Below, piece by piece: positions 429 to 25,425 of a DNA stretch of 36,788 nucleotides (position 1 is the stretch's first letter; each line of letters begins with the position of its first letter). Both the position numbers and the translations under genes were made by a program. This DNA comes from Candidatus Sumerlaeales bacterium (lineage in GTDB: Bacteria; Sumerlaeota; Sumerlaeia; Sumerlaeales; Sumerlaeaceae): assembly GCA_038243585.1 (NCBI GenBank), contig JBBSQY010000035.1:1-36788 (forward strand), written 5' to 3'. The notes under the pieces are model-generated. The model saw only the letters and a list, made by a program, of their open reading frames with translations. It was not told the DNA's origin and ran no database searches.

Positions 429-1349
429 TCAGCTTTGAATTCCCAGGCGCTCAAGAACGCCCTGAAGTTCATCAAGAGACTGGTAATGGATCTCGATTTT
501 GCCCTGATCTTCTCCGGTGGTTGAAATGGACACCCTGCAAGCCAGTGAGTCGACCAGCTGCTCCCGAAGGCGTTGGACGAATTCCGACTCAACTTTAGGA
601 GGCGTGCGCTGTTTGGATTTGCCCTTGCGAGACGCGCCAGCGTCTATCATTTCCTTGGCTTTTAGCTCTGCCTGCCTCACGCTCAGGTAATCTGTCACGA
701 TAAGATCCCTTAAGATCACCTGATCGCGATTGTTCTCCAGGGACAAGATGGCCCTGGCATGACCAGCCGTAATCCGCTCTGCCTCTATATCTTCCTGCAT
801 GTGGGCAGACAGGGTTAACAGGCGAAGGGCGTTAGCCACTGCGGGACGGCTTTTCCCTACTCGTTCCGCAATATCCTCGGCAGTCAGAGAAAAAGCTCTC
901 TGCAGGCTCTGATAAGCCCGCGCCTCTTCCAACGGATTGAGGTCCTCGCGTTGAAGATTCTCTACCAGGGCGTATTCAAGAAGGTCTTGATCTGACAGTG
1001 CATCAAGAATAATTACAGGAACCTCGCGAAGACCAGCCAGTTGCGCCGCGCGCCAACGACGCTCACCTGCAACAATCACATAGTCGTTCTTGCGAGGCAT
1101 TACAGCAATTGGCTGGATCAATCCACGCAGCTTAATAGATTCAGACAGGCCAAGTATCGCCTCTTCATCAAAATACTGCCGAGGCTGCGCCTCATTACGC
1201 CTTATAGCCGTAATAGACAAGACCGTTGGTGGAACAGTAGGGGAGGAATTTACCGGAGCATCCTTCACGCCATTCACGACTGCTTTAGTTGGCTTCTGAG
1301 GGAGCAGGGCTTCAAGCCCGCGACCCAGAGCTCGCTTTTTTGGCTGCAC
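429..1349 (-). CDS. parB: Chromosome partitioning protein ParB (Spo0J)
   Basis: N-terminal KKRALGRGLEALL, QPR, GLIQPI, the CTPase motif AGERRWRAA, ENLQREDL and HTH VGKSRPAVAN. Start placed at GTG 1349 (GAGG SD) instead of the track's TTG 1367. Confidence 0.97.
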   Translation of the reverse strand: MQPKKRALGRGLEALLPQKPTKAVVNGVKDAPVNSSPTVPPTVLSITAIRRNEAQPRQYFDEEAILGLSESIKLRGLIQPIAVMPRKNDYVIVAGERRWRAAQLAGLREVPVIILDALSDQDLLEYALVENLQREDLNPLEEARAYQSLQRAFSLTAEDIAERVGKSRPAVANALRLLTLSAHMQEDIEAERITAGHARAILSLENNRDQVILRDLIVTDYLSVRQAELKAKEMIDAGASRKGKSKQRTPPKVESEFVQRLREQLVDSLACRVSISTTGEDQGKIEIHYQSLDELQGVLERLGIQS

Positions 1350-2094
1350 GGATGACCTCTTCGGCAAGTGATATGTAGTTTCGAGTGCCCATGCTTCTAA
1401 AATCGTATAATATTATAGGTTTTCCGTGGCTGGGCGCCTCAGCAAGGCGAACCGACCTTTGAATCTGAGTCTTAAATACTTTATCCCCGTAATATTCCCG
1501 AACATTGGCGTCAACCTGCTGGGCGATGTTCAGGCGATTGTCAAACATTGTCATGACAATACCCAGCACATCCAGGTCTGGATTCACGCCGCCGCTCTTA
1601 ACCCGGTCAATGGTCTGCATGAGCATAGACAGGCCCTCAAGCGCGTAGTACTCGGCCTGCACTGGAATTATGACCTGATCGCAGGCCGCCAGAACGTTCA
1701 AAGTAAGCAGGCCAAGGGACGGCGGGGCATCGATAAGGATAAATTGATACTTATCCCGCAAAGGCAGCAGGGCGTTTTTAATGCGGTTTTGACGGTCATC
1801 CATCTCCACCAGTTCAAGCTCAGCGCCATAAAGATCCGAGGATGATGGAATAACCTCAAGGTTATCAACGGCTGTCTTCTGCGGCGCCGACGCACCATCT
1901 TCGGGATTTAATATTAACTGGTACGTGGTAATACCGGTCCGATCCACTGCCAGCGCCGACGACGCATTAGCCTGGGGATCGGCATCGACGAGTAAAGTTC
2001 GCTTACCTGCGGCGGCAAGGCACGCGGCAAGGTTGACGGCGGTGGTGGTCTTTCCGACTCCACCTTTTTGATTAACAAAGCCTATTGTGAGCAA
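1312..2094 (-). CDS. parA: Chromosome partitioning ATPase ParA (Soj)
   Basis: Deviant Walker A NQKGGVGKTT, DADPQAN, DAPPSLG, PVQAEYYALEG and RLAEAPSHG; directly upstream of parB. Confidence 0.97.
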   Translation of the reverse strand: MLTIGFVNQKGGVGKTTTAVNLAACLAAAGKRTLLVDADPQANASSALAVDRTGITTYQLILNPEDGASAPQKTAVDNLEVIPSSSDLYGAELELVEMDDRQNRIKNALLPLRDKYQFILIDAPPSLGLLTLNVLAACDQVIIPVQAEYYALEGLSMLMQTIDRVKSGGVNPDLDVLGIVMTMFDNRLNIAQQVDANVREYYGDKVFKTQIQRSVRLAEAPSHGKPIILYDFRSMGTRNYISLAEEVIRAAKKASSGSRA

Positions 2095-2194: not shown

Positions 2195-2210
2195 TGTTTC
2201 ACGTGAAACA
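2195..2210. promoter_or_regulatory. parS: parS site 2 (TGTTTCACGTGAAACA)
   Basis: Second perfect parS palindrome, starting 26 bp after the first. Confidence 0.95.
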
Positions 2211-21465: not shown

Positions 21466-24400
21466 CTACTTGGTCGAGTAAATCACCGTGATCACATTCT
21501 CCCCCGGACGGCGCACTTTCAACTTCAGTTCCCCGTTGTCGTACTGGCTGTCTGTCAGCGGCACCGGGCCGCCGTTAATGTCGAACCGGTGCGGTTTTCT
21601 CGGTAGCTTTATTGATACCGTGCTTAACTCGCCGCCTTTATTGTCCACCCGGACCGTAACACTGCGCCGATCTTCATTCTCCGTGGCTTCAATTTTGCCA
21701 CCGAGGAAGGCTGACTTGTCCCAGTCGGTCACTACCACCCCGTCTGCTTTCTTGTTAATAACTTCAGCGATTACAGGCGGAGCCAGCCACCACAGGTAAG
21801 GATTGACGCGGGCACGGTCCAGATACTCGCTCAGAGTTGCAAAGCTGTCGCCACCGAGGCGCGCCCGCAGGTAAATGTGAGGCAGAGTGATGTAACCGCT
21901 GTTGCCCTGATACAGGGTTTTATAGGGATAATTAAACTGGCCGTCCATCCACTGAGGATAATTCTTTTCAAAAACCTGCTCATAGTTTCGCAGGGCGTCC
22001 TGTGCATAAGTCATATAAAGATCATGATTTTCTGTCTGGATGCCATTTCCGCTGATGTTACTGGTGGCGTTCCACGGATAGCCGTCCAGTTCTCCTTCCA
22101 GAAAACCCTGTCCCTCGTGGAACCCAAGGACGACAGAATGGCTTCCTTTAAACCCGTTTGAGGCGGCGAAATCATTGTAAACAAACCGGTTCAAGCCAAT
22201 TATTGCGGTTCGCGCCAGGGTGTAGAGGCCGTAATGATAATCCTCCTGCCGACCGGCTCCCCGCGCGAGCTTCGCATAAGCAGCGGCGGCGGCGTAGGTG
22301 GCATTTTGTCCGTCACCGGCGCCAGTACCGTGACCGTGGGCACTGTTTGAAGCCCGCATCCATTCCCAGTCATCCGTAACAGTAAACCAGGTGAACATCC
22401 GCTCAACGGCATCCCAGTTATCAAGGGCAAGCTTCCAGTTACCGCTGTATTTCACATAAGTTTCCAGACCATATAAGGACAGGCCATTACCCCAGTCCTG
22501 ATCGTATTTCTTAAATTGAGGCCCTTGCAAAAATGAGGTATACCAGTATTCCAGTCCAGAAAATGGCTCAGTCTGGGAATTCCAAAAATGTCCTCCCAGC
22601 GCCGGAACGACTGTAGCTGCACCGTTATCCATCAGGAGTTTGCGATGCTTAGGCGTCAGGTAACTGTAAGCCTGGTAAGCCTGAGTGCGGGATTTGTAAA
22701 GCACATCCACTGCCGTAATGCTTGTGCTGGTTCCCAAGTCTGTGACGGCATAGTTATTAAGCAGGCTGATAAGAGGCTGCTGGTCAAACATTTCCAGCTG
22801 AGCTCGTTCTGCCAAAGGCGGCACTGGCAGATCGTATGACAACAAGTGAATGAGTTGGTCAGAGCCCTGACCAGACGAGCCCGCCAGGGCGGTCGTCGTC
22901 GTTCCTGCCGAGCTTAACGGGGTACTGTAGTGCATATCACCACTAAAGGCTAATACGCCGGTAGAAGACGTTTGCGGGCCGCTCACCGGATAACCCAGCG
23001 CCTGCTGTACATAATCAACCTGCGGCGGCCGAATCAAAAATGGCCCACCCAGATCCACTCCCCGAGCAGGACGGTACCTGGCGGCCTGAAAAACCCGGAT
23101 TGCAGAAGTATTTTTTATAGGCGTAAAATACTCGTCTACACCCACCGGCTCGTAAAGTCCCACGCGAAACCATTGGCGAAGCACCTCCGCCGGATCCTGC
23201 CCCGGCCGTACCGCGCGAGCAATATCCGACAGCGATTGAACAGGTCCACCGGCTTGAAACTTATATAAACCAAGCGGGTAAAATATATAGACGCCCGCCT
23301 CATCCTTTGATCCTTCTGGCCGCGCCAGGCTAATATCAACATGGGCCGAGGCCTGGGTTACGTTTACGGATAGCCCTGTCGCCACTAGAATGGCCGGGGT
23401 ATTGGATGGACCTGTAGGTAAAAATCCATAAGCTGAGAGACCAGACGGCTTCTTATCACCAAAAACGGCACGCATTTCGTCATCGGTAAGCGGAAAGATC
23501 TGGCCAGTGGTTTGAGGAAATCGAACTCGAAACTCCAATACCGAACCTTGTTCCAGGCGTAAAACCGCTCCGGGATAAAGAACGTTCTGGCGAAGAGAAT
23601 AGGAAACGGGCCGTGATCGGGCAATGCCAGAGACGCCGCTGAGACGGTGCCAGCTATCAATGCCCGGTTCCTGAGCGCCGCGCCTGGTTTCGACCTTAGT
23701 CACTCGGTCGAGCATGACGTCAAAAGTTGGCCCCTGCCGGGTCGCTATGCGAGTCGGACTAACCTCGCTCAGTGCGGGCAACCCGTTATGTTCCAGCTCC
23801 CCAAAACGGCCGAATGATGGACGTTTTCTTTGCAGAAGCGAGGCGCTAACCTCTGGGTCGGCCGCAAGTATCGCTGCGCGCGCAAGTTCAATATCGATGG
23901 TTGGCACCGACGAAGTCGGCTTATCTTCAGGGGGAGGAAGCGACGCAGGAACCGAAGGAGTCAGACAAAAAGTTAATGTTTTGGACTTAATTCCGAAAGT
24001 AGGACGCCCTCCCGGACCGGACATACGCAACGCGAACACGTTCACGCCGGGTTTTAACGCCTCCCTGTCTATCGTGTACATTCGCGGACGAAACTCCGCA
24101 ATGCCCCATCCCGAAGTCTGGCCAATCTGCTTCCCGTTCCAGAAAGCCTCGTCGTTTCCGTCGATGTCGCCGATGGTTATACGTCCGGAACAGGCCTTAG
24201 GTATAGGGTCGGGTAACTGGACAAAGCAAAACAGGACGCCGGTTCCGCCTTGCACGGCGCTGCGCAATGTAACCGTTGGCGTAGTGGGTGTGCCTCTCGC
24301 CCGGATCTGTTCCACAGTGCTGCCCGGCGGCAGATCTGCGGAAGCATACCAGGTAATCTTTCCCAGGTCATAACTCTTAAAGTCAAATATAGGCGGTTTC

Positions 24401-24522
24401 GCGGCCGAGGCTTCGGCGCGAGGCGGCTGCACAGAGCTGCCCGTAGTGACGTATTGTCCCATCGCCGCTCCAGAAACCGCCAGCAGAATGCCTGTCCAAA
24501 CCATAGGCACAGCAAATCTCAT
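21466..24522 (-). CDS. Large secreted protein, probable carbohydrate-active enzyme (sugar-binding jelly roll plus helical barrel)
   Basis: Signal peptide from ATG 24522. IGDIDGNDEAFWNGKQIG...LKPGVNVFALR resembles a galactose-binding/GH2-N domain. The C-terminal half is rich in Trp, Tyr and Asp and helical, like (alpha/alpha)6 glycosidases. Confidence 0.6.
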   Translation of the reverse strand: MRFAVPMVWTGILLAVSGAAMGQYVTTGSSVQPPRAEASAAKPPIFDFKSYDLGKITWYASADLPPGSTVEQIRARGTPTTPTVTLRSAVQGGTGVLFCFVQLPDPIPKACSGRITIGDIDGNDEAFWNGKQIGQTSGWGIAEFRPRMYTIDREALKPGVNVFALRMSGPGGRPTFGIKSKTLTFCLTPSVPASLPPPEDKPTSSVPTIDIELARAAILAADPEVSASLLQRKRPSFGRFGELEHNGLPALSEVSPTRIATRQGPTFDVMLDRVTKVETRRGAQEPGIDSWHRLSGVSGIARSRPVSYSLRQNVLYPGAVLRLEQGSVLEFRVRFPQTTGQIFPLTDDEMRAVFGDKKPSGLSAYGFLPTGPSNTPAILVATGLSVNVTQASAHVDISLARPEGSKDEAGVYIFYPLGLYKFQAGGPVQSLSDIARAVRPGQDPAEVLRQWFRVGLYEPVGVDEYFTPIKNTSAIRVFQAARYRPARGVDLGGPFLIRPPQVDYVQQALGYPVSGPQTSSTGVLAFSGDMHYSTPLSSAGTTTTALAGSSGQGSDQLIHLLSYDLPVPPLAERAQLEMFDQQPLISLLNNYAVTDLGTSTSITAVDVLYKSRTQAYQAYSYLTPKHRKLLMDNGAATVVPALGGHFWNSQTEPFSGLEYWYTSFLQGPQFKKYDQDWGNGLSLYGLETYVKYSGNWKLALDNWDAVERMFTWFTVTDDWEWMRASNSAHGHGTGAGDGQNATYAAAAAYAKLARGAGRQEDYHYGLYTLARTAIIGLNRFVYNDFAASNGFKGSHSVVLGFHEGQGFLEGELDGYPWNATSNISGNGIQTENHDLYMTYAQDALRNYEQVFEKNYPQWMDGQFNYPYKTLYQGNSGYITLPHIYLRARLGGDSFATLSEYLDRARVNPYLWWLAPPVIAEVINKKADGVVVTDWDKSAFLGGKIEATENEDRRSVTVRVDNKGGELSTVSIKLPRKPHRFDINGGPVPLTDSQYDNGELKLKVRRPGENVITVIYSTK

Positions 24523-24732
24523 CCTGCGAAAATCGGCCCTGCTATAAATGCCGAAGTTCAGCAGAGGAAAAACAGATTCTTTTTCATAATTTTCACAATC
24601 CGCTCCAGCCCTCATCTTACGCCAGTAGCTTTACAGCTAAAAAACAGATTATTTGCAGAGGCCGTCAAGAGACAAAACATCGCCACTAGAGGCAGACCAT
24701 GAGAATCCAATAAGAAAAGGATTTTTCAAATC

Positions 24733-25079: not shown

Positions 25080-25425
25080 CTATTACTTATTATATATAAC
25101 ATAGTACTCTATATAATAGTATCTGTAGTAGGGCCTGTGGATATGGGGATAACATTTTAAGTTATCCCATATCAATAATGTGGGATGCGTTATCGGGTGT
25201 TGACGGAAATAGAAAGTCCCCACAGGACGCTGTTATACCGGCTGCGATTTTCAAATAACGACGTTTTTACTCACGAGCGTAAGCCAGCCTGTGTAAAACT
25301 TTCCAACGACTTCTGTCGTACCCTTGTCAAAAAGTGGAAAGTATCTGCCACCTCAACCACGACAGAACAAAGGGTTATTCACATATCCACAGGGTTATCC
25401 CCAAGCTGCCTGACTTGTGGACGAA
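25080..25425. other. oriC: Chromosomal replication origin oriC (DUE, DnaA-trios and DnaA boxes)
   Basis: AT-rich 25081-25125; TAGTAG trios at 25126-25131; GGCC; overlapping boxes TGTGGATAT (25136-44) and TGGGGATAA (25144-52); further boxes TGTGTAAAA (25290-98), TTATTCACA (25375-83), ATATCCACA (25383-91) and TTATCCCCA (25395-403); parABS in the same window. Confidence 0.88.

Follow-up and report, generated by a model that had tools for sequence, protein, structure and literature searches.

A probable chromosomal replication origin away from dnaA in Candidatus Sumerlaeales and its relatives

A gene-free stretch of about 350 bp in a draft genome of Candidatus Sumerlaeales is probably the chromosomal replication origin (oriC) of this bacterium. 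As far as its sequence allows us to judge, it would be a single, one-piece origin built on a basal unwinding system (BUS), located 23 kb from parABS and unlinked from dnaA. Throughout, 'the window' denotes the whole stretch of DNA that was analysed, 36,788 nucleotides of contig JBBSQY010000035.1 (assembly GCA_038243585.1). Its genome, G000, is available as 99 contigs (3.43 Mb, G+C 52.5%, 90% complete). The idea of a chromosomal origin came from an earlier note on this DNA, and it is backed by the uniqueness of the module in the assembly, its class-wide conservation, its linkage to parABS and the skew minimum of the closed genome G021, the skew data as a whole being mixed.

Architecture of the module

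The order of elements described in the earlier note, an AT-rich stretch followed by TAGTAG, GGCC and overlapping DnaA boxes, can be read directly in the sequence at that place (Table 1). The tandem boxes overlap by one base. The note had counted at least four more boxes, including an overlapping pair; there are five further boxes, the pair among them. In the distal group, the boxes start at 25375, 25383 and 25395, in the orientation opposite to that of the unwinding tandem. Several relatives have a better box at +81 than the degenerate one of the window. A search of the window against Rfam gave no match, and a promoter scan returned four sites compared with 1.6 +/- 1.2 in shuffled sequences, a difference that tells us little.

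Table 1. Features of the origin-like module and of its neighbours in the window
Feature	Position	Strand	Remarks
parB gene, single copy	429..1367	-	TIGR00180, 177 bits (cut-off 58)
parA-family ATPase gene	1312..2094	-	NCBIfam ParA-family, best E 2.6e-32, under equivalog cut-off; position ahead of parB
Two perfect parS palindromes	2169-2184, 2195-2210	.	Sole perfect ones in the assembly
Excisionase-type helix-turn-helix gene, 78 aa	24733..24969	+	TIGR01764 and PF12728 above cut-off
AT-rich tract, predicted DNA-unwinding element	25080..25113	.	80% A+T over 25080-25125
DnaA-trio array TAA TAG TAT CTG TAG TAG	25114..25131	+	From sequence; register from 14-module alignment
GC-rich spacer GGCC	25132..25135	+	Identical in the B. 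subtilis scaffold
Trio-proximal DnaA box (B. subtilis box 7 position)	25136..25144	-	1 mismatch to TTATCCACA
Second tandem box (B. subtilis box 6 position), TTATCCCCA	25144..25152	-	1 mismatch to TTATCCACA
Putative degenerate box at +81	25216..25224	+	3 mismatches; placed by conserved spacing
Middle box at +155	25290..25298	-	2 mismatches
Distal box group: overlapping pair 25375-25391, box 25395-25403	25375..25403	+	1 mismatch each
Outermost box	25416..25424	-	2 mismatches; kept in both same-genus relatives

The BUS of Bacillus subtilis (incC) consists of DnaA boxes 6 and 7, a GC spacer and DnaA trios (PMC6669920, PMC8287927, PMC10721633). The likeness to this order that the earlier note had pointed out extends to the letters, as the core of the module (25126-25152) has 25 of its 27 bases in common with the B. 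subtilis scaffold and differs at two, in a by-eye comparison with the supplement of PMC8287927. The published sequence rule calls for a run of three or more NAN trios no farther than 16 bp from a DnaA box, and systems of this kind were predicted in 85% of 2070 origins (PMC8287927). By this rule the window module belongs to the BUS, with 13 bp separating the end of TAA TAG TAT (25114-25122) from the box at 25136. A stricter feature of these systems, required in B. subtilis for full activity, is a central A in all three box-proximal trios. Trios 1 and 2, counted from the boxes, are TAG, but trio 3 (25123-25125) is CTG and has no central A, so that the module falls short of this feature. The break is shared by the relative G001, and the trio is intact in G002. 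As for its effect, a transversion at the central A is stated to slow strand separation in B. subtilis, with no statement of abolition in the pertinent text (bioRxiv 10.1101/2022.03.18.484894). Cytosine can stand for adenine in trios (PMC10721633), and the TCG trios carried by the module of G003 fit this replacement.

The tandem boxes have one mismatch each, where two and four are tolerated, and they have the right orientation next to the GC spacer, on the same strand as in B. subtilis. The distal boxes, at +155 to +281, are combined with the AT-rich tract. In B. subtilis a distal box worked at distances of 132-462 bp (PMC6669920), and those of the window lie inside this looping range; order and spacing are alike in the two systems. 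They also differ, as the box 6 position of the window, TTATCCCCA, is not a perfect box, and as the window module neither sits between dnaA and dnaN nor has a second half upstream of dnaA.

A single such locus in the assembly

With five boxes (at most one mismatch) in 400 bp, the module is the densest DnaA-box cluster of the assembly, the runner-up having three; about 0.003 clusters of that density are expected under a Poisson model. The 27-mer core occurs at no second place in the assembly, even with 7 mismatches, and a matrix made from nine relatives, with G000 left out, gives the module a score of 51.8 and the next site 19.0. The AT-rich tract is unremarkable by itself, with 35 regions equally AT-rich. 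No rival candidates were found at dnaA, mnmG, rpmH, gyrB or parABS of the assembly, which leaves a single such locus, near parS.

The other three-box clusters of the assembly were considered as origins and rejected, as four of five are inside long open frames and the one at C16:45681-45715, with three boxes in 35 bp, one of them perfect, has no trios. The latter group is possibly a DnaA-regulated promoter or a titration site.

Conservation of the module in the phylum

Searches of 41 genomes by DNA similarity and by pattern revealed the module in new gene contexts. A sequence-only model built from 14 modules then gave matches in 46 of 75 genomes from the phylum, at E values up to 1. Among 16 non-training matches at E < 0.02, 13 were accepted on inspection and three were dropped; those of G023 and G050 are inside open frames and devoid of boxes, and the match in G041 is also outside the accepted set. 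Together with the 14 training modules, that of G009 (E 0.62) and a degenerate one found by hand in G007, the count of genomes with a credible module reaches 29 of the 75, and 11 of 12 family relatives are among them. No credible module was found in the other 46, many of which are fragmented. There is one module per genome across the class.

All 14 aligned modules have an AT-rich tract (60-85%) at the corresponding place. Twelve of 16 modules have a backward box between +150 and +170 (shuffles give a mean of 0.6 and a maximum of 3), and all 16 have a forward box between +230 and +280 (shuffle mean 1.4, maximum 4), with the proviso that these spacing windows were picked after looking at the data and that the modules of relatives are not independent. 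The comparison with relatives that the earlier note had called for shows that the spacing of the boxes is kept across the class in different contexts, the direct neighbours of the module differing between genera.

In six family genomes (loci L242, L246, L248, L249, L259 and L270) and, by inspection, in G004, the module is directly next to an operon that includes a C4 zinc-ribbon coiled-coil gene. Most family members have this gene beside the origin, and it is probably the family's older origin neighbour; in G000 it is on contig C44. Another gene of the relatives presumably deserves the label Nif3-like. In the closed genome G007, a CRISPR array and cas genes directly follow the zinc-ribbon gene, 3 kb from the module (L098:6430-6730).

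The degenerate module of G007 is missed both by loose patterns and by the profile model. The clusters of this genome at 2,896 kb, 1,131 kb and 906 kb were rejected as origins as they have no trios; we take the first to be upstream of an nrdR-like gene and the second upstream of a dnaB-like gene. A trio match at about 2,681 kb is part of a second, different CRISPR array.

Only in G074, a genome outside the class, is the module next to dnaA, between this gene and dnaN. This genome provides a positive control for the model, which recovers the dnaA-dnaN module there, with a layout identical to that of the window module. Apart from this exception, no module was found within about 1.5 kb on each side of 29 of the 30 top-scoring dnaA loci and 11 of the 12 top-scoring dnaN loci. 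The best model scores at the module-less loci are 9.0 (dnaA) and 9.2 (dnaN), compared with 14-54 for the model matches. Beyond about 1.5 kb, the surroundings of dnaA were read in G000, G007 and G021. We did not retain G074 as a picture of the ancestral state, as its DnaA falls outside the clade of 30 class sequences (support 100 in a quick tree, on a long branch). Because of this position and of the presence of two dnaN genes in the genome, its contig C426 may be foreign or a contaminant. On that contig (L251, L284), gyrB is divergent from dnaA-module-dnaN-recF, an arrangement that we assume to be as in spirochaetes.

dnaA and the scattered replication genes

The sole full dnaA of G000 (C5:13685-15085, 466 aa) is on another contig than the module, at a distance of at least 25 kb. 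Its neighbours are an M28 peptidase gene on one side and a gene for a type II secretion pilin on the other. A gspG-like pilin gene follows dnaA in 20 of 30 loci, often with an M28 peptidase gene before it. On C5, mnmG lies 76 kb beyond dnaA; rpmH is on C14 and gyrB on C26, and no dnaN turned up in the assembly (90% complete), so that its surroundings were unreadable. In the draft genomes, module and dnaA are on separate contigs throughout, with lower bounds of 20-244 kb for their distance in 11 of them. In the closed genomes, dnaA lies 2.15 Mb from the module in G021 (6.0 Mb; 72% of the half-circle), with dnaN at 2.84 Mb, and 1.60 Mb from it in G007 (3.29 Mb), 41 kb from the antipode or 97.5% of the way.

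The module might be one half of a split origin, with a partner cluster next to dnaA or to another replication gene. Bipartite origins exist in B. subtilis and Helicobacter pylori (PMC4285127), the missing dnaN could hide such a partner in its flanks, and the three-box cluster on C16 might be seen as one. We nevertheless regard this as very unlikely. The earlier note had asked whether dnaA has its own box cluster, and no box with at most one mismatch is present around it, in the 5.5 kb at C5:11,500-17,000. The known halves are about 2 kb apart, across a spacer gene that is usually dnaA (PMC4285127), and no second cluster of this kind was found in the window or around dnaA, which is far more distant from the module in G000 and in both closed relatives. 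The module also has distal boxes of its own. Of the two possibilities that the note had left side by side, a relocated origin therefore fits, and a split one is unlikely given that there is no partner cluster at dnaA. 'Relocated' itself would be better put as follows: the whole ancestral dnaA-dnaN-rpmH-gyrB-mnmG cluster was scattered, with the origin remaining close to parABS.

The DnaA protein of G000 has all four domains (Pfam), and it aligns with B. subtilis DnaA (PDB 8btg) at E 2.7e-130. Its closest relatives are from Candidatus Sumerlaeota, Sumerlaeales or BRC1 (five of 80 loci, 60-82% identity). The residues of B. subtilis DnaA involved in base capture and backbone contacts have been named (PMC10721633). 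The G000 protein retains E183, N187, I190, I193, R202, K222, E228 and the arginine finger R264, with E223 replaced by D. By sequence, it thus has the trio pocket, arginine finger and domain IV predicted for a cognate DnaA. The recognition helix of the DnaAs of the class mostly reads DHTS, as opposed to DHTT in B. subtilis.

A second DnaA-type ATPase domain was identified at the end of a 1,370-aa TPR protein (G000:C49:7635-11747, minus strand; L002) that has no box-reading domain; most relatives have a homologous long frame. E183, I193, R202, R206, K222, E228 and R264 are retained in it, with the changes N187D, I190V and T225A. In the closed genomes its gene is 263 and 734 kb from the module.

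Linkage to parABS and other neighbours

The earlier note had stated that none of the usual origin neighbours was in the window. This is true of dnaA, dnaN, rpmH and mnmG, but the parA-parB pair and parS, 23-25 kb to the left of the module, had been overlooked. parS and dif were searched with consensus patterns that we presume to be the standard ones. parS is usually described as close to oriC. In 12 genomes (G000, G001, G003, G004, G005, G007, G008, G009, G011, G021, G035 and G036), parB is on the contig of the module, 3.5-24 kb away. The two are on different contigs in G002, G006, G010, G020 and G034; in G010, parS is 10 kb from the module although parB is elsewhere.

The gene adjoining the AT-rich tract codes for a helix-turn-helix protein of the excisionase type, and we regard it as a neighbour only. 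Together with the varying neighbours of the module between genera, it might evoke an integrated mobile element whose origin mimics oriC and includes the excisionase-like gene. However, no integrase or rep gene was found among the 29 window proteins scanned. Homologues of the small gene are present in 45 of 75 phylum genomes, in single copy in 44 of them; it adjoins the module in only two of 32 module loci and is 346 and 540 kb from it in two closed genomes. Given a single module per genome throughout the class, an origin of mobile-element descent is largely refuted and hardly credible. The helix-turn-helix protein rather looks like a housekeeping DNA-binding protein of the lineage, with no fixed link to the origin.

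Two other observations were made on this side of the module. A 40-base stretch upstream of the helix-turn-helix gene (24633-24680) has doubled depth; a near-copy is present on another contig of run X1, and the assembly holds no second copy. The extra depth and the near-copy may come from another organism. A 1,049-aa open frame (21466-24615, minus strand) has no match in Pfam or NCBIfam, and it also adjoins the module in G002 (63% over 302 aa).

GC skew and strand bias

The clearest skew signal comes from G021, in which skew is negative before the module and positive after it. Twenty samples of 20 kb, together with a stretch of 427 kb, put the switch 2.4 kb away from the module; the cumulative minimum over the 427 kb is at 5,349,216 and the module at about 5,346,850. 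In G007, nine of 11 left-arm samples are negative and the mean of the right arm is +0.012. The skew is about -0.09 on the left side of the module and stays flat over 300 kb on the right side, and the cumulative minimum, a broad one, lies at a distance of 178 kb from the module. In only four of 13 genomes (G003, G005, G010 and G021) does the skew of the 10-40 kb flanks turn from minus to plus where the module lies; 8% of 74 overlapping control windows show such a switch. There is no sign change in seven of the 13, including G000 (-0.021 on both sides), and a plus-to-minus change in G008 and in G004, whose right side is just 4.5 kb. The cumulative skew check proposed in the earlier note was thus favourable in G021, but neither G007 nor G000 gave the same picture. 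A search for dif to locate the terminus gave counts similar to those of its control. The note had also cautioned that prfC and pheT would be head-on to forks leaving the module. Their orientation is as described, but the caveat carries no weight, because the co-directionality of sampled long genes is 48% and 51% in two closed relatives.

Over the stretch between module and parS, the sign of the skew is that expected for forks leaving the module in 10 of 11 genomes; the signal is weak in G000 (z -2.0) and G008 is the failing genome. We devised this test once the data had been seen, and short intervals of this kind can be biased by the orientation of their genes.

The mixed skew leaves some room for the idea that the module is a DnaA-binding control locus that titrates or resets DnaA near the true origin, the latter being elsewhere, perhaps at parABS. 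Skew passes through the module in G008, G011 and G020, and in G020 it flips at parABS. Box clusters outside oriC are also origin-proximal in Bacillus (PMC3245932). We find this improbable, as the module displays the full unwinding order in the same layout as the dnaA-dnaN module of G074, as the assembly offers no other candidate, and as the skew of the module-parS stretch points away from the module in 10 of 11 genomes. Like the module, the box clusters known outside oriC, the DBCs of B. subtilis and datA and DARS of Escherichia coli, are intergenic and often origin-near (PMC3245932), but the window locus adds trios, a GC spacer and an AT tract in unwinding order.

The flip in G020, from -0.19 to +0.15, takes place 2 kb from parB (C3:21500-27000; L385, L386). 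No module was found in the 40 kb around parAB-parS, and the module of this genome is on contig C8, with a uniform skew of +0.16. The failing cases might be due to rearrangements that are frequent near the origin, to a recent relocation or to misassembly.

Discussion

If the module is the origin of the chromosome, as we think, its firing might follow the scheme known from B. subtilis. DnaA made in trans would bind the tandem boxes (PMC6669920, PMC10721633), and the boxes at +81 to +280 would loop back and supply more DnaA (PMC6669920). By analogy, a filament of ATP-DnaA could then extend leftwards over the top-strand trios and melt the AT-rich tract, where the helicase would be loaded. As for its history, the dnaA-dnaN-rpmH-gyrB-mnmG cluster presumably broke up early in the class. 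Rearrangements near the origin would have kept swapping its direct neighbours, with parABS mostly staying within 3-25 kb.

We found no published account of a Sumerlaeota oriC in a search that covered neither subscription journals nor origin databases, and the main text of a review on Sumerlaeota (PMC8092238) deals with neither oriC nor dnaA. The surprise is modest, because origins away from dnaA are already known from several phyla, and what we did not find in print is one for Sumerlaeota. Such origins have been described in E. coli (gidA), Caulobacter and Rickettsia (hemE), Chlamydiae (hemB), some cyanobacteria and Neisseria gonorrhoeae (PMC1470461, PMC4009838, PMC4285127). Like them, the window module is of one piece and has neither dnaA nor dnaN among the genes around it. 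In contrast with those groups, most of which hold a fixed neighbour gene, the neighbours vary in Sumerlaeia and a loose linkage to parABS remains. In N. gonorrhoeae, parA is likewise distant from the origin.

It is tempting to speculate further that Sumerlaeia keep dnaA late-replicating on purpose, as an initiation timer, that the origin is a free 350-bp module and that the class-wide TPR-DnaA-ATPase joins the filament, although we regard this joint reading as a long shot. The timing part rests on the terminus-side dnaA of two closed genomes, and there are no DnaA boxes at the dnaA promoter of G000. If it were true, the dosage of DnaA would double only near the end of a round and would time the next initiation without autoregulation. 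The module would be able to leave even parABS behind, as in G020, and a protein with most trio-binding residues and no box-reading domain would act on imperfect trios.

Our analysis thus places a likely origin for a bacterial class without a cultured model. It also provides a marker where dnaA-reliant origin finders would be wrong by megabases. The Bacillus-type unwinding core appears to have been kept nearly letter-perfect, while all the usual neighbour genes but parABS are gone. Modules in which the second or third trio is naturally broken would offer a test of how strictly trios are read.
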